A stretch of DNA of 64,000 nt from Macrostomum lignano (taxonomy: Eukaryota), in the NCBI GenBank assembly GCA_002269645.1, contig NIVC01001081.1, positions 248,001 through 312,000 on the forward strand, given 5' to 3'. Positions 45,139 through 55,790 of this stretch are shown here, piece by piece; position 1 is the first letter of the stretch, and every line of letters starts with the position of its first letter. The notes below the pieces were generated by a model. It was not told the origin of the DNA and made no database searches. It saw only the letters and a list, made by a program, of their open reading frames with translations. The translations under genes and the position numbers were made by a program.

Positions 45139-45713
45139 ATGCTGGAGTGGGTGCCGCAGGTACCTCAACAGTATTTCAGAGCAGCAGCAGACCAGGTGAA
45201 TATTAGGCTCTGCATAAATTTCAAGCCGATCGACAGGCCGTAATTCTCCCCATTAAGCGACTATAATTGAGCGAGTGTTTTATTGAAGTGTTCTCGGCGT
45301 TCTGAGTCACTCGGCTGCCTCAGCCACTTAACTCTCACTTAGAACTGTCAATCAAAAGTTTGGAGTTAATTGGCAAAATTGAATGAGTGCTGAGGGCCCC
45401 CGCGTGGCGCTCTGATTTCTGTACTCGGCAATTCCGTAAAAAGGAATTAATTCATCTCAAAAGTGGATTTAATCTCTCTCAAATATGGCAAATTAATTTG
45501 GACCCAGTTGATTATTTTTCTGCCAGGGTTCAAAGCAATCACAGATATTGGGCACTCGCATTCTAATTGCTCGGATAAATTTAATTTAGATAATTACAGC
45601 CAGGGGTTAGCGCACGTTGGGGAGCAAAGAAATAACAGAATTACCCGTGTTCTCTACTGCCAAGTAGAGTAGTTGGAGCGTTTAGCTTATCATATAAATC
45701 TGTCATAATAAAG

Positions 45714-46000
45714 GATTGTCACTGTTGGATTGTCACTGCTGTTGGATTGTCACTGTTGGATTGTCACTGATGGATTGTCACTGTTGGATTGTTGCTGTTG
45801 GATTGTCACTGTTGGATTGTCACTGTTGGATTGTCACTGTTGGATTGTCACTGTTGGATTGTCACTGTTGGATTGTCACTTTTGGATTGTCACAGAAGTA
45901 TTGTTGCTGTTGGATTGTCACTGTTGTATTGTCACTGTTGGATTGTCACTGCTGTTGGATTGTCACTGTTGGATTGTCACTGTTGGATTGTCACTGTTGA
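45714..46000 (+). repeat. 14-bp satellite GGATTGTCACTGTT, left of the retrotransposon
   Basis: Direct reading. Confidence 0.93.
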
Positions 46001-46001
46001 G

Positions 46002-46874
46002 TGTAGTGCATGCGCCCTTGTCAGTTGGCAGGGCGCGTTGCACTTTGGGGCTGGTTGGGGGGGGGGGTTGGCGGGCGTGGCAGGGTCTGGCCCCGGCCGG
46101 GCTTTGCGCGTGCCCCTCCCCAGCCGTGCCCCTGCCCCGTGCTCAGGGCTGGTTGGCTGCGGCCGGGCCAGCTTTGGCGCGGGTGCAGCCCCTCCCCCCT
46201 TAGGCGGGGTTTTGATTGGCTGGGCCGGCGTGGTTTGTTTTGGTGAGCTTAGCCGGTGGGGCCGTCTGCCCCAGGGTTTGGGTGCTATTTATGGTGCGAC
46301 TCTGGCTCTTGCCCGCCTCCTGCGTGCTTTTTGTGTTTTGGTGTGCTCCGAGAGTGCAAGCGCGAGACCTGATAAAAGAAACAGCAACATTAGCTACTTG
46401 GATAAAAGAAACACAATAGCCTAATTGAGAAGAGTCTTGGAGAATTAAGAAGAAGTCGGAAACTGCGCTTGAGACCTGCGAATAATAAACGGTGAACAGT
46501 CATCTGGCCACTGGTAAGCCGCCTGCTGTTTGAGTCCTTTCTTTCCGGGAAGCTTGCTAGGCCGAATTCTTGCCAGAGCGTCATAACGCCGGGAGACCAT
46601 ATAGCTTCTGTAGTACGGTACCGTTTACCATATATATTGCGTACGCCTTACGGTATAGAGAATAGAAGCACTCGAGAGTGTCACCACACCTCAAGCCGCA
46701 GCGTGAACTCTGAGTGTCACAACACCAGAGGGATCGAATTATTATCGCAGAGCGTCGCCACGCCTGCTCGTCGTATTCATAAAAGTACAGACAGAGCGTC
46801 ACAACGCCTGTTATTTCACATATAATATATATTGTACTCGGGACTGGGCACCCAAGCCGACCCGGGTTACAACA
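46002..46874 (+). repeat. 5' LTR
   Basis: TGTAGT..ACAACA; matches 54918-55790 except around G/C homopolymers. GC box at 46202-46209, inverted CCAAT at 46215-46219, AATAAA at 46484-46489. Confidence 0.96.
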
Positions 46875-46877
46875 AAT

Positions 46878-46895
46878 TGGCGCCCGAACAGGGAC
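46878..46895 (+). promoter_or_regulatory. Primer binding site, tRNA-Lys(UUU)
   Basis: TGGCGCCCGAACAGGGAC is the 18-nt complement of the tRNA-Lys3 3' end (same as the HIV-1 PBS), 3 nt after the LTR. Confidence 0.95.
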
Positions 46896-47119
46896 CCTGT
46901 CCCCAAAGATTGAAAGTCGGCTCAGTTGATTTCTATGAAAATTGCTGTCATATTGTGAGCGTTTTTTCTTATTAAAACGACTGTTGCTTATCGCTTGCGG
47001 CTATTGCCCTACCGCAAAAGACATTGATCACGGTGACAGACAACTGATTGGTTATCAGAGATCGATAGCTATCACCACCTCAGAGTAAAGAGTAGCAACG
47101 GTATTCAGTGACTTCGGCC

Positions 47120-48040
47120 ATGGGTGATCAAGCTATGGACCAACTGATCGATGCGCTGGCTGCGCGCCTCAGAGCCAACGCCGACCGAGCAGCGCCACGA
47201 CTCTCGAAGCCGCCCAAGTACATACCAACGATGAATTTCAGCCTATGGCTGCAGAGTTTCAACGAGTACTGCGAGGCTGTCGGTATAGAAGAAGAAGCCA
47301 GGCGGCCGCACCTGATCGGCCTACTCGACCTCACAACAGCCTACGCTGCCGTTGATAAGCTGGACTTGGCAGACGACATCGAGTACGGGGAATTCACGGA
47401 TGCACTACTGGCGCGGTTCACCATGAACAGAACAGCCCAGGACTACCGTTTTGAATTATCGAATCGAGATCAGCTAGACAAGGAGTCTGTGGAGACCTAC
47501 GGGGACGAGCTGCTGGAGTTGGTGCGCAATGCCTTCCCCACCGCGGATGCCGACACCAGGACAGAGCTGGCGAAAGACAGATTTCTAAAAGGCGTTCGAG
47601 TAACCGACACTGTCCGAGAAAGACTGTACCTGCAGCAGCCGGCCAACCTCACCGATGCCATTCGAACAGTAAGACAACTTGAAGCAGCCCAGAAGGCGTC
47701 TTCGACCCAGTCCAAAGCCAGACCCAGGGCTGGGCTGAATGCCTTTGCCACCGAAACGTCGACAGGTGACACCGGCAAAGACGAGGAGCTACGCCAACTG
47801 CGTCAAAAAGTAAAGGAAATGGAAGAAAAGATCCGACGGATGGAGCAGATGCAGCAGGGCCAGCAGGAGCCGCCCGAACCCGGCCTTCAAGACAAGCAAC
47901 AATCCAAGCAGGCGGCTCCGTCCAGCTCGAAGCAGCGTAGCGGTGTCAAGTGCTACAACTGCGGGGAGATAGGCCATCTCTCATTCCAGTGCCCAAAGCC
48001 GGGAAAAGGCAAGAGGGGCCCACCAGCTGGAGGCAAGTGA
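47120..48040 (+). CDS. gag: Gag (capsid plus CCHC zinc knuckle), 306 aa
   Basis: gccATGg start; gypsy-type capsid motifs (ESVETYGDEL, DRFLKG) and the knuckle CYNCGEIGHLSFQC. Confidence 0.92.
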   Translation: MGDQAMDQLIDALAARLRANADRAAPRLSKPPKYIPTMNFSLWLQSFNEYCEAVGIEEEARRPHLIGLLDLTTAYAAVDKLDLADDIEYGEFTDALLARFTMNRTAQDYRFELSNRDQLDKESVETYGDELLELVRNAFPTADADTRTELAKDRFLKGVRVTDTVRERLYLQQPANLTDAIRTVRQLEAAQKASSTQSKARPRAGLNAFATETSTGDTGKDEELRQLRQKVKEMEEKIRRMEQMQQGQQEPPEPGLQDKQQSKQAAPSSSKQRSGVKCYNCGEIGHLSFQCPKPGKGKRGPPAGGK

Positions 48041-51000
48041 GCCCCTGCAATTCGTCAGCCTCCGAACAAGCCGTCATCTCATCTCATCATCATCAAACGC
48101 CCGGTACCGCATCTCATCAGCCTCCAGTGTCCGGTACTGCGCCTCATCAGAATCCAGTGTCCGGTACTGCGTCTCATCAGCCTCCAGTGTCCGGTACAGT
48201 ACCTCATCAGCATCCAGTGTCCGGTACTGCGGCTCATCAGCATCCAGTGTCCGGTACTGCGCCTCATCAGCATCCAGTGTCCGGTACAGCGTCTCATCAG
48301 CCTCCAGTGTCCGGTACTGCGTCTCATCAGCATCCAGTGTTCGGTACAGTACCTCATCAGCATCCAGTGTCCGGTACTGCGTCTCATCAGCCTCCAGTGT
48401 CCGGTACAGTACCTCATCAGCATCCAGTGTCCGGTACTGCGGCTCATCAGCATCCAGTGTCCGGTACTGCGCCTCATCAGCATCCAGTGTCCGGTACAGC
48501 GTCTCATCAGCCTCCAGTGTCCGGTACTGCGTCTCATCAGCATCCAGTGTTCGGTACAGTACCTCATCAGCATCCAGTGTCCGGTACTGCGTCTCATCAG
48601 CCTCCAGTGTCCGGTACAGTATCTCATCAGCATCCAGTGTCCGGTACTGCGTCTCATCAGCATCCAGTGTCCGGTACTGCGCCTCATCAGCATCCAGTGT
48701 CCGGTACTGCGTCTCATCAGCCTCTAGTGTCCGGTACTGCGTCTCATCAGCCTCCAGTGTCCGGTACTGCGTCTCATCAGCATCCAGTGTCCGGTACAGT
48801 GCCTCATCAGCCTCCAGCGTCCGGTACTGCACCTCACCATCAACTAGCCGGTTTTGCACAGTCGCAGCGCCCAATCACCGTCAACGCACCTCAGTCAATT
48901 CAAATCAATCCTGCGTCGATATATGTTACGGCCTCAATCGCAGGGCGGAGGGTGAACGCGCTAGTGGACTCGGGAGCTTCCTGCACCATTATCTCACGGG
49001 AAGCTTACCAAAGTATGCCGAAACAGAGCGTCAGAGATTTGGCCGGTGCTGAAGGCTACGTTAGCTTAGCAAACGGCAGCCCGATCGAAATCGAGAGAAC
49101 AGTCCTGTTGCGACTGTCAATCGCTGATAAAGTAATAGATACTCCAGCCTTGGTAGTCAGCGGAGTGAAGTACCAACTGGTATTGGGATCCGACTTCTGC
49201 AGGGACAACAGTTGCGTCATCGACTACAAGACAGCTGTCTTTTCAGTGCAGGACACTGCAATCCCGTTCCGATGGCAAGCTGAGCGCCCGATCGTTTGCA
49301 GAATTTTGGCGACAAGGTCCAGCACAATACCGCCAGGTCATCAAGCAGTTCTGTCAGCAAGGCTGGAGAGCAAAGGACGACGGAACAGAGGGTGTGTCGG
49401 CCTAACTGAGAATCTCGGGGCGAACGATTTGGCAGCTGGCCGCTGGCTTGCTAAGGCCTTAGTGATCCCAAATAGCGGCAGCCGTCTGCCGACTCGACTC
49501 ATCAATATCACGGAGGAGCCAGTCAGAATTCGCCAAGGTTGTACGCTCGGGTGGTTCTGCCCCCTAGAATCCACCGAACCGTTGAACACCATCAAGCTCT
49601 TAGCCGTAGAGTCAGGAGACGATCCACAGGAAGAGCCGAAGGTCCAAGGCAGCAACAGCCCTTCGGAAGCAGACTTGCTACCAAACTCGTACGGCGACTG
49701 TGGACTGTCGACGAAAGAAGACGAAGAATTTAGAATCCTTGTCCGGAGTTACAGCGATGTGTTCACGACCAAGCAGACTTCAAGCAAGTTAACTACCGTG
49801 GTGGAGCATGAAATTAACACCGAGAATGCGCGCCCAATCAAGATCCCACCGCGTCGTCTGCCTCCCCACTTACAGCCAGAAGTAGATCGTCAAGTCAACG
49901 AGTTGCTGGAAAAGGGGCAGATCGAAGAAGCACAGTCACCATGGTGCTTTCCTTTGGTGTGTGTAAAGAAGAAATCAGGGGAAATGAGGATGTGCGTCGA
50001 TTATCGGAAGTTGAATGAGGTCACCGTCAAGGATGCAGTGCCGATGCCGAGGGTCGATGATGCGCTGGAGGCAGTACACGGCGCCAAGATCTTCTCGACA
50101 ATGGACCTTCACAGCGGGTTTTGGCAAGTAGGGGTGAGACCTCAGGATCAGGACAAGACGGCGTTTGCAGTGCCGCATCGCGGACAATTTCGATGGAAGG
50201 TTATGCCGTTCGGCTTAGTGAACAGCCCAGCAACATTCACCAGGTTGATGGCAGCCGTTCTGGACAAGCAGATGTGGAAAACCTGTCTCGTCTACATCGA
50301 CGATCTACTGGTTTGGTCAACCGACGTGGATGAACACCTGAGAAGACTGGAGGAAATATTCAGCAAGTTGCGGCAAGCAAATTTGTGCCTGAAGCCCCAG
50401 AAGTGTCACTTTTTGCAAAAGCAAGTGAAATTTCTCGGTCACACGCTGTCGGCTGCTGGCATCAGTACCGATGAGGAGAAAGTTCAAGAAGTGAAGAACT
50501 GGCCAACACCGCGATCCTCGACGGAGCTGCATTCATTCTTGGGCCTGTGTGGCTATTACAGAAAGTTTATTAAAGATTTCGCCGCAATAGCAGCGCCTCT
50601 AACTCGATTGACAACAAAAGACGCAAAGTTTGAATGGAAAACGGAACAGCAGCTGGCGTTCGAAACATTGAAGGAACGAATGACAAGTTCAGAGGTTATG
50701 GCTCATCCGGATTTCTCCCCGGATGCCGGAGAGTTTATCCTCGATACTGATGGCAGTTCGAAGATGGGCATAGGAGCGGTACTTTCTCAAGTCCAGCCAG
50801 ATGGAGCAGAACGAGTGATCGCCTATGGGTCCAAGACACTAAATCAAGCCGAACGCAACTATTGTACGACTCGTTTAGAACTACTAGCGGTTGTGACTTT
50901 CATCATGAAGTTCAGATACTATCTGCTTGGAAAAGCGTTCTGTCTGCGAACGGACCACAGCAGCCTGCAATGGTTAAAAAACTTCAGTGACGCCGAGGGA

Positions 51001-52737
51001 CAGGTTGCTCGCTGGTTGGAGAAGTTGGCTCCATTTCAGTACCGCATCGTTCACAGACCAGGTCGATCGCATGGCAACGCGGACGCAATGTCGAGGAAGC
51101 CAGTACGGAGACATTTCGGAGCGGAGACATGCCCGGCATGTGCGCAGCATCCAGAAGGACTAAATGCAGTCGAATTTGAACGATTCTCAGCCGGCAATCT
51201 GGCAAGCGAGCAGGATCAAGACGACGATTTGAGAACAGTAAAGGAAGCGCTTGGCTCAAACCCAGTTCCAGATAAAAGCGAGACAGCTTGGAGTCCACTG
51301 GCTAGAGCCGTCTGGACTCGAAAAGACGACCTGGTGCTGCAAGAGAACGTGCTCCTTGTGAGAAACAAAGACAGGCGCGATGAGTATCAAATGGTGCTGC
51401 CACGAAAGGCATTGGATCGTATCTTGAAAACCCTACACGAGGGAGTGGGAGGTGGCCACATGGGCTTTGCGAAGACAAAATTTAAAGTGCTTCAGCGCTA
51501 CTGGCGTCCAGGATTGTCTCGTGCCATTGAAGAATATATTCGCGGTTGTGCCACCTGCTGCAAGTCAAAGCCGGGCAAGCGAAACCGAGCACCCCTGCAA
51601 CCGTTGACATTCGCAGCACCATTCGATTGCGTCATGATGGACATTGTCGGGCCGCTACCGCGGAGTAAGGCTGGAAACATTTATCTCCTGACAGTCCAAG
51701 ATTCGTTTACGAAGTGGCCTGACGCGTACCCGCTTCGCAACCAGAAGGCAAGGACGGTGGCAAGGGCGCTTTTCAATCGATGGATTAGCCAGCATGGATG
51801 TCCGAGTACTTTGCACAGTGACCAAGGAAGGAACTTCGAATCGCAAGTGATGCGCGAAATGTGCAGGATACTCGAGATCCGCAAGTCCAGAACCACAGCT
51901 TATCATCCGAGCGGAAATGGACAAGTAGAAAACTTCAATAAAAGTTTAAAATCCATCCTCAAGTGCTGCCTAGAGGACTCAGGACGAAACGACTGGGAAG
52001 AATTCGTCAGCTCTGCGTTAATGGCGTACCGATCAAGCGTGCATCGAGCAACGGGTTATACTCCCCACTACATGGTCTATGGCACGGAGATGCGCCTACC
52101 GATAGACTTGACTGACCAGCCGCCACAGCCTGTCGATTCGCATGTAAATTTCGTCAAGGAGCTAGAAGACAAATTGCAGACAGCTCATCGCGCTGCTCGA
52201 CAGCAGTTGAATACTTATCAGCGGCGACAGAAGGACCAGTACGATAAAAGAACCCGAGGATCCGATATTCAGGAGGGTGACCATGTCTTCGTCTACAGCC
52301 CCGCCCTGAAACCAGACGAAGCCGCAAAGTTTCACGTAAGCTGGCTCGGCCCAGTGAAGGTGCTCGAAAGAAGATCCGAGGTGCTCTTCAAAGTGGAAAA
52401 CCCGTCAAATCGTAAAAAGTCGAAGTTCGTCCACTTCAACAACCTCCGGAAGTTCGCTCGACCGGCCGCCCTGGAAACACCAGTTAGGACCGCGGCACCG
52501 CCGGAGGTGGTCGACGAGACGGACTCGGAGACAGAGGCGGAATGCGAGACTTGGACTCGGCCTCAACTGATGCCGCCACAGGACGCCGAGGAAGTCGCCG
52601 AGGTGCTGGAAGAGCAGATGGAGTTGGTTGACGACCCGCAGCCTACTCATAACCCGGTGGAAGCTGCACCTGAGCCTCGAAGGTCCGGAAGGTTGCGACG
52701 GCCGCCGGATCGCTACGGCCAGCCAGTGACATTCTAA
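47950..52737 (+). CDS. pol: Pol (repeat linker, protease, RT, RNase H, integrase), expressed as Gag-Pol
   Basis: LVDSGAS (PR, Asp at 48967), YIDD (RT, 50293), LDTDGS..YCTTRLELLAVV (RH), HEGVGGGHMG..CATC, MDIVGP, HSDQGRNFES and QVENFN (IN), C-terminal RRSGRLRRPPDRY. Confidence 0.96.
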   Translation: MLQLRGDRPSLIPVPKAGKRQEGPTSWRQVSPCNSSASEQAVISSHHHQTPGTASHQPPVSGTAPHQNPVSGTASHQPPVSGTVPHQHPVSGTAAHQHPVSGTAPHQHPVSGTASHQPPVSGTASHQHPVFGTVPHQHPVSGTASHQPPVSGTVPHQHPVSGTAAHQHPVSGTAPHQHPVSGTASHQPPVSGTASHQHPVFGTVPHQHPVSGTASHQPPVSGTVSHQHPVSGTASHQHPVSGTAPHQHPVSGTASHQPLVSGTASHQPPVSGTASHQHPVSGTVPHQPPASGTAPHHQLAGFAQSQRPITVNAPQSIQINPASIYVTASIAGRRVNALVDSGASCTIISREAYQSMPKQSVRDLAGAEGYVSLANGSPIEIERTVLLRLSIADKVIDTPALVVSGVKYQLVLGSDFCRDNSCVIDYKTAVFSVQDTAIPFRWQAERPIVCRILATRSSTIPPGHQAVLSARLESKGRRNRGCVGLTENLGANDLAAGRWLAKALVIPNSGSRLPTRLINITEEPVRIRQGCTLGWFCPLESTEPLNTIKLLAVESGDDPQEEPKVQGSNSPSEADLLPNSYGDCGLSTKEDEEFRILVRSYSDVFTTKQTSSKLTTVVEHEINTENARPIKIPPRRLPPHLQPEVDRQVNELLEKGQIEEAQSPWCFPLVCVKKKSGEMRMCVDYRKLNEVTVKDAVPMPRVDDALEAVHGAKIFSTMDLHSGFWQVGVRPQDQDKTAFAVPHRGQFRWKVMPFGLVNSPATFTRLMAAVLDKQMWKTCLVYIDDLLVWSTDVDEHLRRLEEIFSKLRQANLCLKPQKCHFLQKQVKFLGHTLSAAGISTDEEKVQEVKNWPTPRSSTELHSFLGLCGYYRKFIKDFAAIAAPLTRLTTKDAKFEWKTEQQLAFETLKERMTSSEVMAHPDFSPDAGEFILDTDGSSKMGIGAVLSQVQPDGAERVIAYGSKTLNQAERNYCTTRLELLAVVTFIMKFRYYLLGKAFCLRTDHSSLQWLKNFSDAEGQVARWLEKLAPFQYRIVHRPGRSHGNADAMSRKPVRRHFGAETCPACAQHPEGLNAVEFERFSAGNLASEQDQDDDLRTVKEALGSNPVPDKSETAWSPLARAVWTRKDDLVLQENVLLVRNKDRRDEYQMVLPRKALDRILKTLHEGVGGGHMGFAKTKFKVLQRYWRPGLSRAIEEYIRGCATCCKSKPGKRNRAPLQPLTFAAPFDCVMMDIVGPLPRSKAGNIYLLTVQDSFTKWPDAYPLRNQKARTVARALFNRWISQHGCPSTLHSDQGRNFESQVMREMCRILEIRKSRTTAYHPSGNGQVENFNKSLKSILKCCLEDSGRNDWEEFVSSALMAYRSSVHRATGYTPHYMVYGTEMRLPIDLTDQPPQPVDSHVNFVKELEDKLQTAHRAARQQLNTYQRRQKDQYDKRTRGSDIQEGDHVFVYSPALKPDEAAKFHVSWLGPVKVLERRSEVLFKVENPSNRKKSKFVHFNNLRKFARPAALETPVRTAAPPEVVDETDSETEAECETWTRPQLMPPQDAEEVAEVLEEQMELVDDPQPTHNPVEAAPEPRRSGRLRRPPDRYGQPVTF
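48001..48046 (+). promoter_or_regulatory. Programmed -1 ribosomal frameshift signal
   Basis: G GGA AAA heptamer in gag phase, 6-nt spacer, stem AGGGGC-C-CAC / GTG-A-GCCCCT; pol is in the -1 frame. Confidence 0.7.
48101..48840 (+). repeat. 30-bp in-frame minisatellite (25 x 10 aa, xPVSGTxxHQ) in the pol frame
   Basis: Counted directly in the translated ORF; includes a 7-unit higher-order duplication. Confidence 0.95.
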
Positions 52738-53160
52738 TGGGTTACTCGTCATCGTGAAGTCTCATCAGTTTCATATGCGATTATCGTTAAAAGCCAGAAA
52801 AATATTTCGCGAATGCGTCATTCATCATAAATACGAGTACTTCATCAATGCACCATTCATCATGAGTACGAGCAGTTCGCCAATGCGTCATTCAAGAAAT
52901 TCGTTAATGCGTCATTAAGTCATTTTAATCGCATCTTCATCGAAGTTTTGACGAGAATCAAATTTTGCCTACAAAATCTATGCATCGGTGGAGGGTATTC
53001 GGACTGGCATCCGGTGACAACTCGAATTTGCGCTGGGACTTTACGATGCAGGGTACCGCGGGCCACGGTCCGAGGAGATGACGCTCTGGCAAGAGGGGAG
53101 CAGGAGTAGAATCTGGAGTCAGGGACAGTGTGTCGCAGGTTTGAGTACGTTGCTTTGCAG

Positions 53161-54195
53161 ATGGATTTGTACGCTGTCCTCCAAGTCGGACACACAGCAG
53201 AACGTGCCGAGATCAGGCGAGTCTATCGACAGCTAGCGCTCTTCTGGCACCCGGACAAGCACCCGGACAAGGAACTCGCAGGACGCCGTTTCCAAGAAAT
53301 TGAGACTGCTGGTAGAATTCTATCGTGTCCATATCGCCGAGCGATGTACGACCAGTTGGGCGATAAATCAATCCCGTATGACGAGGCTGTAACCTTCGCA
53401 ATGACGTTCATACCTCCTACTAGTGTAAGAATGCCGGCGGACATCGAAGAGGGAGTACAGCAAAGGCGAGAAGTTGAAGAAGCTCAGCGCAAGGAAGCTG
53501 GTCTCAGGCAGGGGAGACAGGGACAGAGGAACGATTACGAAGCGGATGGCTACATTCTAATCTCGGACGACGATGAGAGCGAGGAGTCGGATGAGTGTAG
53601 CATCGACACAGAAGAAGAAGACGAGTTGCTGGCATCGGATGGCTCCTCCGGAAGTAGTGAGTCAGAAGCTATGGAGATCGATGTACCGGAAAGCAAGGAG
53701 GTTGTCTCACATCGCGCGTCGGGAGCAATATGGGATGATGAAAAGCTGTCGTTATCGGCAGCTGCGCGTCAGCTCCGCCATCGTTTGATGAAGCATATTT
53801 TGGCTGGACAGTCGGACGGAATCGTGTCAGTGCTCACGGCTATGAGACGGCTGTTTCGAGACTCGCAGCGAGAACCGAGGAGCGCACTGTCAATGGTCCT
53901 GCTGCAGGCGTTGTTCTTCATCCGCAGAGATATCGCTCCGGTAAAGCGTCAGAGAGCAGGCCGCCGTTACTGGTCTAGGCAGAGTTTTGATTGTTTCGTC
54001 CGACAGCTCTGTCACGAGCTCATCCCGCTGTTCGGTTTGCGCCGGCCCGGCAGGCTGCTCGAGGTCCTGAAAAGCTGCGTCGGTCTCCCTGGACTTCGGG
54101 TTCGCTGGGTGCCCAGTTCCGATTCATACTGTATTTTCTGCTTACTTGTATGTATGTTGTTACGCTCGTACTGTATGGGTTTATTTGCATGCTAG
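53161..54195 (+). CDS. Retrotransposon ORF3: N-terminal J domain (DnaJ/Hsp40-type) protein, 344 aa
   Basis: DLYAVLQV..AEIRRVYRQLALFWHPDKHPD..RRFQEIETAGRILSCPYRRAMYDQLG aligns to the J-domain consensus with an intact HPD (53248-53256). An acidic tract and a basic/helical C-terminal half follow. It lies between pol and the PPT. The ORF track starts at GTG 53128; the first ATG is 53161. Confidence 0.88.
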   Translation: MDLYAVLQVGHTAERAEIRRVYRQLALFWHPDKHPDKELAGRRFQEIETAGRILSCPYRRAMYDQLGDKSIPYDEAVTFAMTFIPPTSVRMPADIEEGVQQRREVEEAQRKEAGLRQGRQGQRNDYEADGYILISDDDESEESDECSIDTEEEDELLASDGSSGSSESEAMEIDVPESKEVVSHRASGAIWDDEKLSLSAAARQLRHRLMKHILAGQSDGIVSVLTAMRRLFRDSQREPRSALSMVLLQALFFIRRDIAPVKRQRAGRRYWSRQSFDCFVRQLCHELIPLFGLRRPGRLLEVLKSCVGLPGLRVRWVPSSDSYCIFCLLVCMLLRSYCMGLFAC

Positions 54196-54232
54196 TGGGG
54201 TCAAGCTTCCTGGGGGAATGGCTCAGCAGCTG

Positions 54233-54660
54233 TGCGGCGGCCACGTGCGCTTCCTGCCGGCTTCTGCGGCGGCCACGCGCGCTTCCTGCCGGCTTCTGCG
54301 GCGGCCACGTGCGCTTCCTGCCGGCTTCTGCGGCGGCCACGTGCGCTTCCTGCCGGCTTCTGCGGCGGCCACGTGCGCTTCCCGCCCGGCCATCTGCGCG
54401 CCTCGCCCGGCCGCCTTCGCGTCTTGCCGGCCACCTGCGTGCCCTGTCGGCCATCTGCGCGTCCTGTCGGCAACCTGCGTGCCCTGTCGGCCATCTGCGC
54501 GTCCTGTCGGCAACCTGCGCTTCCTGCCCGGCCATCTGCGCGTCCTGTCGGCAACCTGCGCTTCCCGCCCGGCCATCTGCGCTTCCTGCCGGCCACCTGC
54601 GTGTCCTGTCGGCAACTTGCGCGTCCCGCCCGGCCATCTGCTCGTCCTGCCGGCCGCCTG
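54233..54660 (+). repeat. GC-rich internal tandem repeats (five 32-bp units, then ~40-bp units) in the element's 3' non-coding region
   Basis: gcggcggccacgtgcgcttcctgccggcttct at 32-bp spacing, followed by cggccatctgcgcgtcctgtcggcaacctgcg.. units. Confidence 0.85.
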
Positions 54661-54905
54661 CGATGGTTTTCTGTGCCGCCAGCTTTGAAAGCCTATTCCG
54701 TGCCCCGTGGTTGCTCCTGACGAACTCGCGTGCAGAATACTAGTACCTTTTTCATATTTCTCTTGCGGCAACCTTTTTTTTTGCTTTTCCCTGTTGCATT
54801 AGTTTGTTCCCAATTTTTTTGTTGTTTTTGATTTTTTTTGCTTTGTTATTTAAAAAAATTGGAATCCCAGTCGCCGTGGTTCGAGCTCCGCCCTGTTTTT
54901 TTTGT

Positions 54906-54917
54906 AGGAGGGGAGGG
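54906..54917 (+). promoter_or_regulatory. Polypurine tract
   Basis: AGGAGGGGAGGG directly abuts the 3' LTR and is preceded by a T-rich tract. Confidence 0.9.
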
Positions 54918-55790
54918 TGTAGTGCATGCGCCCTTGTCAGTTGGCAGGGCGCGTTGCACTTTGGGGCTGGTTGGGGGGGGGGGGTGGGCGGGCGTGGCAG
55001 GGTCTGGCCCCGGCCGGGCTTTGCGCGTGCCCCTCCCCAGCCGTGCCCCTGCCCCGTGCTCAGGGCTGGTTGGCTGCGGCCGGGCCAGCTTTGGCGCGGG
55101 TGCAGCCCCTCCCCCTTAGGCGGGGTTTTGATTGGCTGGGCCGGCGTGGTTTGTTTTGGTGAGCTTAGCCGGTGGGGCCGTCTGCCCCAGGGTTTGGGTG
55201 CTATTTATGGTGCGACTCTGGCTCTTGCCCGCCTCCTGCGTGCTTTTTGTGTTTTGGTGTGCTCCGAGAGTGCAAGCGCGAGACCTGATAAAAGAAACAG
55301 CAACATTAGCTACTTGGATAAAAGAAACACAATAGCCTAATTGAGAAGAGTCTTGGAGAATTAAGAAGAAGTCGGAAACTGCGCTTGAGACCTGCGAATA
55401 ATAAACGGTGAACAGTCATCTGGCCACTGGTAAGCCGCCTGCTGTTTGAGTCCTTTCTTTCCGGGAAGCTTGCTAGGCCGAATTCTTGCCAGAGCGTCAT
55501 AACGCCGGGAGACCATATAGCTTCTGTAGTACGGTACCGTTTACCATATATATTGCGTACGCCTTACGGTATAGAGAATAGAAGCACTCGAGAGTGTCAC
55601 CACACCTCAAGCCGCAGCGTGAACTCTGAGTGTCACAACACCAGAGGGATCGAATTATTATCGCAGAGCGTCGCCACGCCTGCTCGTCGTATTCATAAAA
55701 GTACAGACAGAGCGTCACAACGCCTGTTATTTCACATATAATATATATTGTACTCGGGACTGGGCACCCAAGCCGACCCGGGTTACAACA
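54918..55790 (+). repeat. 3' LTR
   Basis: Direct repeat of 46002-46874. Confidence 0.96.

Follow-up and report, generated by a model that had tools for sequence, protein, structure and literature searches.

How an LTR retrotransposon tells its full-length RNA from its spliced RNA is understood for few elements, and in the closest case, that of Cer1 and its protein CERV, no RNA target is named in the accessible part of the report (PMC10309623). The question is raised by a retrotransposon in a 64,000-nt stretch of the Macrostomum lignano genome (contig NIVC01001081.1, positions 248,001 to 312,000; hereafter the window), the LTR of which carries five small hairpins. The initial annotation had taken these hairpins, which lie 3' of AATAAA, for a multivalent recognition element in RNA or single-stranded DNA that is under selection, and had named the nucleocapsid of Gag or the product of a third open reading frame (ORF3) as the candidate ligand.

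The element at 46002-55790 is a young Ty3/gypsy LTR retrotransposon, with all of the structural features of that superfamily (TG...CA LTRs, a primer-binding site (PBS), and a polypurine tract (PPT)) and its coding order of gag followed by pol as PR-RT-RNase H-IN (Table 1). The 5' and 3' LTRs are identical at 871 of 873 aligned bases (one flanking base is counted in the alignment), and in a search of its own genome the array region was matched at 98-100% by all 40 of the loci that were scored, out of 252 candidates. There was no clear target-site duplication at the flanks of the element, which is surrounded by a 14-bp satellite (window 45712-46001 and 55791 onward). The PBS, which we take to be of the tRNA-Lys type, varies among sister lineages, with at least four types at the LTR ends of L064, L070, L080, L096, and L105, implying putative tRNA primer switches. 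A slippery-type heptamer, GGGAAAA (48001-48007), in the gag frame inside the gag/pol overlap is a candidate -1 frameshift site, and a 30-nt tandem repeat (10-residue unit, ~25 copies; ~47963-48980) occupies the pol frame upstream of the protease. For the hairpin at the LTR end, similar folds are predicted in L122, L062, and L064.

Table 1. Features of the element, in window coordinates.
Feature	Position	Strand	Basis or remark
Ty3/gypsy LTR retrotransposon	46002-55790	+	LTRs, PBS, PPT, gag, pol order
5' LTR (TG...CA), 873 bp	46002-46874	+	alignment to 3' LTR
TATA-like box	46286-46292	+	228 nt upstream of donor; inferred start site near 46315
AATAAA poly(A) signal (predicted)	46484-46489	+	30 nt upstream of donor
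Predicted 5' splice donor CTG/GTAAGC	46511-46519	+	intron start 46514; junction 46513/46514
Hairpin unit 1	46573-46593	+	weak lower stem, A.G mismatch
Hairpin unit 2	46674-46692	+	
Hairpin unit 3	46708-46730	+	
Hairpin unit 4	46747-46767	+	
Hairpin unit 5	46791-46811	+	
Predicted terminal hairpin at LTR end, separate from the five-unit array	46832-46872	+	folding prediction
PBS	46878-46895	+	sequence; identical or related sites after LTR in sister lineages
gag, one CCHC zinc knuckle	47120-48040	+	
pol frame (PR-RT-RNase H-IN)	47941-52737	+	-1 relative to gag
Predicted 3' splice acceptor (...TTGCAG)	53145-53160	+	abuts ORF3 ATG
ORF3, 344 aa	53161-54195	+	J domain with HPD (2-64)
PPT	54906-54917	+	
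3' LTR	54918-55790	+	repeats donor and array; its units fall within 55489-55727

All five hairpin units lie at the coordinates and have the sequences first described for them (bulged bases at 46577, 46677, 46713, 46751, and 46795), recur unchanged in the 3' LTR at +8916, and have the reported AATAAA at 46484-46489 upstream. A strict rule (three Watson-Crick lower pairs, one extra 5' base of any identity, four Watson-Crick upper pairs, and a 4-nt loop) was satisfied by four of the five units, compared with 0.058 on average and never more than 3 in dinucleotide shuffles of the LTR (n = 3,000), and the same geometry occurred 0 times on the minus strand and twice in the 8,042-nt internal region. 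The lower stems differ in sequence and nonetheless pair, as had been claimed, and their 18 pairs were reached by one of the 120 permutations of the 3' flanks, the true one. Of the features that had been called invariant, the bulged A and the tetraloop are constant within the window family and variable elsewhere, and the loop-closing pair, given as G-C, is in fact U-A, with G-C pairs flanking the bulge instead. The window-family loops (CAUA, CACC, CACA, CGCC, and CACA) have only their first C in common and lack the conserved unpaired guanines that are a feature of packaging signals.

For units 3-5, the upper stems are supported by folding predictions whichever of three span limits is set (P ≥ 0.81), whereas unit 2 depends on the span (P = 0.94 at span 100, 0.08-0.15 at longer spans) and the lower stem of unit 1 is weak (P = 0.18-0.25). 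Unit 2 folds better on the minus strand (-11.2 kcal/mol vs. -6.5 kcal/mol on the plus strand), and as DNA the array folds alike on both strands. No Rfam 15 family reached its gathering score, the single match (E = 4.9; 18.5 bits vs. 93) falling outside the array.

ORF3 and RT searches recovered six lineages at 55-65% RT identity (A/B, C/E, G/N099, L, N096, and P/N105/N109), the branching of which is poorly resolved in trees. A core, GYGY-C-N2-3-RCRC, follows the donor in four of the six (A, C/E, G/N099, and L) and is absent from the LTRs examined of N096 and P/N105/N109; N096 has hairpins that differ from the core type, and another kind of hairpin occurs twice in N105. BLASTn detects no similarity among the LTRs of A, C/E, G, and L, all of which have kept the core nonetheless. 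In A, C/E, and L, 54-67 nt separate the donor from the first unit, and the lineages A and C/E, with RTs 63% identical, have a 1+4 arrangement of units in common. Most of the C/E cores can be read as a 5-bp dyad, and predicted folding in context is poor for the first unit of C and E (P = 0.0-0.02) and for two units of L122 (P = 0.0). L099, with stops in its RT and no detectable ORF3, keeps three units. A covariance model built from the A and C/E units and searched against 20 sources (247 kb) returned in the window only ten LTR units (five training sequences and their five 3' LTR copies), identified further units in L116, L118, L120, L124, L088, L031, and L125, and found none in L070, L080, L099, and L121, so that the G- and L-type units were grouped by sequence core and flank pairing. 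No loci from other hosts were found.

Sequence conservation within the array is concentrated in the stems. Against the diverged LTR L123, the stems (a count that includes the bulge and the first loop C) are identical at 77 of 80 positions, compared with 7 of 15 at loop positions 2-4 and 52 of 115 in the spacers, a contrast that may be inflated as the alignment was anchored on conserved blocks. Decayed copies follow the same order (stems vs. spacers, 51/64 vs. 58/133 in L031 and 61/80 vs. 60/140 in L088), and there is little contrast in the close LTR L120 (72/80 vs. 110/139). Orthologous hairpins differ between subfamilies by paired changes (e.g., CTCTG/CAGAG vs. TTCTG/CAGAA).

Covariation in homologous LTRs had been set beforehand as a test, and the lower stems do covary across lineages. 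Among 23 units, for which A, C, E, G, N099, and L each contributed a single LTR and the near-duplicates L120, L122, L126, and L121 were excluded, the lower stems form 67 consecutive pairs, compared with 31.3 ± 5.8 in 20,000 flank permutations, none of which reached 67; as the units were chosen by their core, the upper stem is built in and the lower stem is independent of the choice. For the 18 tetraloop units of the window, L122, L062, and L064, 88% of cells pair (31-53% in slid controls) and 23 cells are compensatory where 6.7 are expected, a value reached by none of 500 shuffles; two measures counting pairs or pair types in this set were not significant (48 and 84 of 500), and kinship among units inflates covariation tests of this kind. 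The flanks pair with a one-base offset (39/42 in A-type units and 34/45 in C/E) far more than without it (12/42 and 16/45). The extra base itself is A in 12, T in 9, and C in 2 of the 23 units of the six LTRs, with lineage L having a triloop in place of the tetraloop and the G-type units fitting an A.C mismatch better than a bulge. The units very probably represent a selected single-stranded structure, and on this point the covariation in homologous LTRs supports the initial annotation.

Wobble counts, tried as a means of choosing the strand, were neutral (G.U 7 vs. A.C 8). Folding z-scores of whole segments (5 of 15 segments scored below -2.5, those of C, E, G, and L lay near 0, and the L107 segment was overlong) were excluded as support, and a long-range helix closing the array was dropped with its cognate arms beating every non-cognate arm in just 2 of 11 LTRs.

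A predicted splice donor, which all six lineages have, lies inside the LTR ~60 nt ahead of the start of the array. Within windows that were selected by eye, 17 of 18 LTRs have a donor-like GT[AG]AG[CTA] upstream of the array; of 15 LTRs examined, 14 have a PAS-like hexamer upstream of the donor and 12 have a TATA-like word 116-234 nt upstream of it. At the other end of the predicted intron, the ORF3 ATG is preceded at a distance of 0-16 nt by a YAG in all seven elements that have an ATG, and in four the two abut directly. The lineage P copy L081 has a J domain without an in-frame ATG within 60 nt; the last A of the donor exon joined to the TG of the acceptor would create one, and the second AG six bases on would not. 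This putative split start codon is supportive, not conclusive, both lineage P copies having a frame-broken ORF3. A gypsy subclade is known to use split start codons for env (PMC12992720), and third ORFs of LTR elements are typically spliced (PMC5408684; PMC12992720), so far as the accessible text of these reports goes. Contigs from 4 of 24 runs (X1, X3, X8, and X14, the RNA origin of which is a guess) show a single joint, which lies in the 3' repeats and away from both donor and acceptor, and the contigs listed for X1, X3, and X8 span 53161 unbroken; as contigs drop rare forms, they neither show nor exclude splicing. Judging by the conserved sites, ORF3 is probably spliced from the LTR donor to the ORF3 acceptor.

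If the predicted donor and AATAAA are used, the leader array would be intronic and its 3' copy cut off, and the leader copy would be retained only in the unspliced full-length RNA. Cleavage far downstream of the poly(A) signal, as in HTLV-1 (PMC3504254, from the portion accessible), could conceivably apply here as well. The position suggests that the array may be a docking site that marks full-length RNA for nuclear export or packaging, and the conserved donor and predicted ORF3 acceptor raise a possible role in an export or splicing switch to at least the level of packaging.

ORF3 is under purifying selection, with dN/dS of 0.08, 0.22, and 0.22 in the three measurable comparisons (a fourth was saturated) and 0.28 for the RT control. 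The assignment of its J domain is based on PF00226 (E = 6.4e-18), on 9 of 10 aligned members, and on a predicted model that matches solved J domains. The model further predicts an acidic linker, of low confidence, and a C-terminal domain (~200-306) of five helices with a basic loop (~256-272). An R[RK]D...RR.W pattern in this loop is common to the four lineages with the RNA core and missing from N096, for which the ORF3 C-terminal domain is the most diverged (16-24% identity) and Gag is ordinary (44-55%). No known RNA-binding fold was a clear match to the C-terminal domain (best Z 8.6, to generic helical bundles), and an Atlas lead to DnaJ-X (0.83-0.85) fell below the 0.9 mark and was unconfirmed by Pfam. 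In a survey of the window (53161-54195), L062, L064, L067, L071, L096, L105, and L081, an ORF3 with a J domain was found in the representatives examined from five of the six lineages, also in P/N105 (a degenerate J domain in N105), and none was detected in L099 or L109. The ORF3 of P and N105 has a long extra C-terminal region, and the linker of L071 contains an inserted chromodomain (PF00385, E = 1.4e-12). Beyond the copies in its own genome, ORF3 has near full-length relatives in P0008-P0011 and P0157.

The structure of the array, its selection and covariation, its place after a donor-like site, and the conservation of ORF3 are directly established. By analogy with Rex, Rev, and CERV, our leading and still tentative reading is that the array is a multivalent response element through which ORF3 releases unspliced RNA. 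Transcription would start in the 5' LTR, and default splicing from the LTR donor to the ORF3 acceptor would remove the array, PBS, gag, and pol and yield an ORF3 mRNA. The C-terminal domain and basic loop of ORF3 could then bind the repeated stems, reading the conserved G-C/G-C core beside the one-base distortion, and binding beside the donor may block splicing and/or license the export of unspliced RNA, as with Rex, Rev, and CERV. The J domain, from what such domains do in general, may recruit Hsp70 to remodel or release the complex.

Both ligands proposed by the initial annotation, Gag and ORF3, appear plausible. ORF3 is favored by the layout of a spliced regulator, by conservation that lies in the stems beside the distortion and not in exposed guanines, by the constant spacing between donor and first unit in lineages A, C/E, and L, and by N096, a single event in which hairpins and basic loop changed and Gag did not. 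Against this, the correlation between ORF3 and hairpins rests on about one change, that of N096, in a poorly resolved tree, and the position of the array suits a packaging signal equally well. Nor is the array universal among ORF3 carriers, since there is no repeated 8-mer in L081 or N096 and one in L107, and lineage P, to which L081 and L107 belong, combines a J-domain ORF3 and a donor with a missing or near-missing array. The C-terminal domain resembles no known RNA-binding fold, and J domains are more often linked to the assembly or disassembly of protein complexes. Further, the strand test is neutral, unit 2 prefers the minus strand, and some units (the first of C and E, two of L122) fold poorly in context.

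The closest viral parallel is HTLV-2, in which RxRE-2, as is predicted for the array, is a structured element that lies in the R/U5 part of the LTR close to an LTR-internal donor and that comes at the 5' terminus of unspliced RNA, and Rex carries an arginine-rich stretch, for which the conserved basic loop of ORF3 is a candidate counterpart. In contrast to the five discrete covarying units described here, RxRE-2 is one 226-nt element, Rex is not described with a J domain in the accessible text, and the function proven for RxRE-2 is proposed for the array by analogy (PMC3504254). Cer1 of C. elegans is, like the window element, an LTR retrotransposon whose accessory protein is made from a spliced mRNA (a predicted splice in the window element); CERV is needed for gRNA export and default splicing has been proposed. 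The domains of CERV, G-like and M with a Cys loop, are unlike those of ORF3, and no RNA response element is named for CERV in the portion accessible, where the interaction is said to remain to be tested (PMC10309623). The broader proposition, that a flatworm gypsy clade evolved a Rev/RRE-like switch from a captured Hsp40, with Hsp70 releasing unspliced genomic RNA and hairpin shape and protein loop co-evolving by lineage, is more doubtful than the response element itself.

A packaging signal is the main rival to the ORF3 response element, possible and on balance the less likely of the two. Gag would recognize the hairpins, five sites would nucleate its assembly, and, since the array lies between donor and PBS, only unspliced RNA would be encapsidated, with ORF3 doing something else, for instance acting on particles as an Hsp70 co-chaperone. 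Retroviral packaging signals are stem-loops 3' of the major donor that are missing from spliced RNA, and the array (46573-46811) lies in this classic arrangement between the predicted donor (46514) and gag (47120), and is predicted to be absent from spliced RNA. It differs in that the LTR itself contains donor and array, upstream of the PBS, and that the conserved bases are in the stem and not in exposed guanines. Gag carries a CCHC knuckle and, among the core-sharing lineages, is far more conserved than the ORF3 C-terminal domain (49-68% vs. 26-37% identity), as would suit a conserved RNA core, and the three units kept by L099 despite its lack of a detectable ORF3 are like a cis-acting signal, though they fit the ORF3 reading too. 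However, zinc knuckles usually grip unpaired guanines, whereas the loops vary freely beyond the first C and contain hardly any G in the window family; the core is unchanged when the number of knuckles varies (one in A, C, and G, two in E and L), and N096 has an ordinary Gag yet different hairpins.

Action at the level of DNA, either as hairpins in minus-strand strong-stop or other single-stranded DNA or as dyad transcription-factor sites in the LTR, would agree with the neutral strand test, the similar DNA folds on both strands, the prevalence of 5-bp dyads among the C/E cores, and the units that retain the sequence core with little predicted folding. It is nevertheless improbable, as the flanks change yet keep a one-base-offset pairing for which a site in double-stranded DNA has no use, the half-sites of lineage L are spaced differently, and we know of no reverse transcription step that needs five repeated sites.

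The ligand may instead be a host factor, a flatworm RNA-binding protein that exports unspliced RNA (CTE-like), tunes the donor or poly(A) site, or retains RNA in the nucleus. Persistence of the core across otherwise unalignable LTRs is expected for a fixed host ligand, and AATAAA, donor, and array fall within ~90 nt. There is precedent, in the accessible parts of the sources, in the suppression of 5' polyadenylation by U1 bound to the donor in HIV-1 and foamy viruses (PMC12789967) and, for nuclear retention, in the U5 repressive sequence of HTLV-1 (PMC3504254). With two of the six lineages in the same host lacking the core, and a geometry that shifts by lineage more in the manner of co-evolution with an element-encoded partner, a host ligand is also improbable. 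A neutral origin, in which one small palindrome was multiplied by the tandem duplication rampant in this genome, agrees with the amplification of the unit into as many as ~65 copies in LTR-derived loci (L091; also L116, L118, and L124) and is largely refuted and very improbable, given window-family spacers and loops that diverged where the stems did not, the paired changes of orthologous hairpins between subfamilies, and the 1+4 arrangement common to A and C/E despite 63% RT identity.

The analogies first drawn with the MS2 operator, TAR, and hepadnaviral epsilon reduce to the loose likeness of a bulged stem-loop, with a bulge identity that is free across lineages and a different geometry. The MS2 operator has an invariant bulged A, a 2-bp upper stem, and an ANYA loop, compared with the variable extra base, 4-bp upper stem, and C-starting loop of the array. 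TAR is a hairpin at the very 5' end of the transcript, and the first unit of the array lies ~290 nt after the TATA-like box and ~260 nt from the inferred start. In epsilon, a large bulge templates protein priming and there is no tRNA primer, as opposed to the 1-nt bulge and the tRNA PBS at 46878, which leaves no place for protein priming.

The catalogue of Macrostomum lignano Ty3/gypsy elements (PMC12801592) agrees with the window element in host species and superfamily. The accessible main text has 0 matches for DnaJ, ORF3, splic, hairpin, or stem-loop, and in its supplement the DnaJ match, among the matches listed (2 of 13), is a host transcript. The accessible text of PMC6338049 and PMC5408684 likewise has 0 matches for DnaJ. 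There was no description of a J-domain third ORF under purifying selection across a gypsy clade in the mostly open-access literature searched, and none of the hairpin motif, subscription journals being mostly outside the reach of that search; the repeated RNA motif of this gypsy clade is real, selected, and apparently undescribed.

In this element a 21-nt unit, of which four lineages provide natural compensatory variants, comes together with a predicted donor and acceptor and two candidate ligands, and the host has transgenesis (PMC12801592, as far as accessible), which together make export versus packaging testable with reporters and purified domains.

The hairpin unit also occurs in amplified form, with ~65 copies of a 40-nt unit forming a minisatellite inside an A-type LTR (L091; G000:C4:64135-66709) and minisatellite-like runs of 3-10 copies in L116, L118/L119, L124, and L125. 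In the apparent recombinant LTRs L120 and L126/L127, lineage A (89%) or E (93%) is matched by the 3' part, which bears the array, and not by the upstream part, which suggests that the array module may be exchanged as a unit. Between units 1 and 2 of the window (46614-46647), the palindromes GGTACC and GCGTACGC are candidate dimerization sites.
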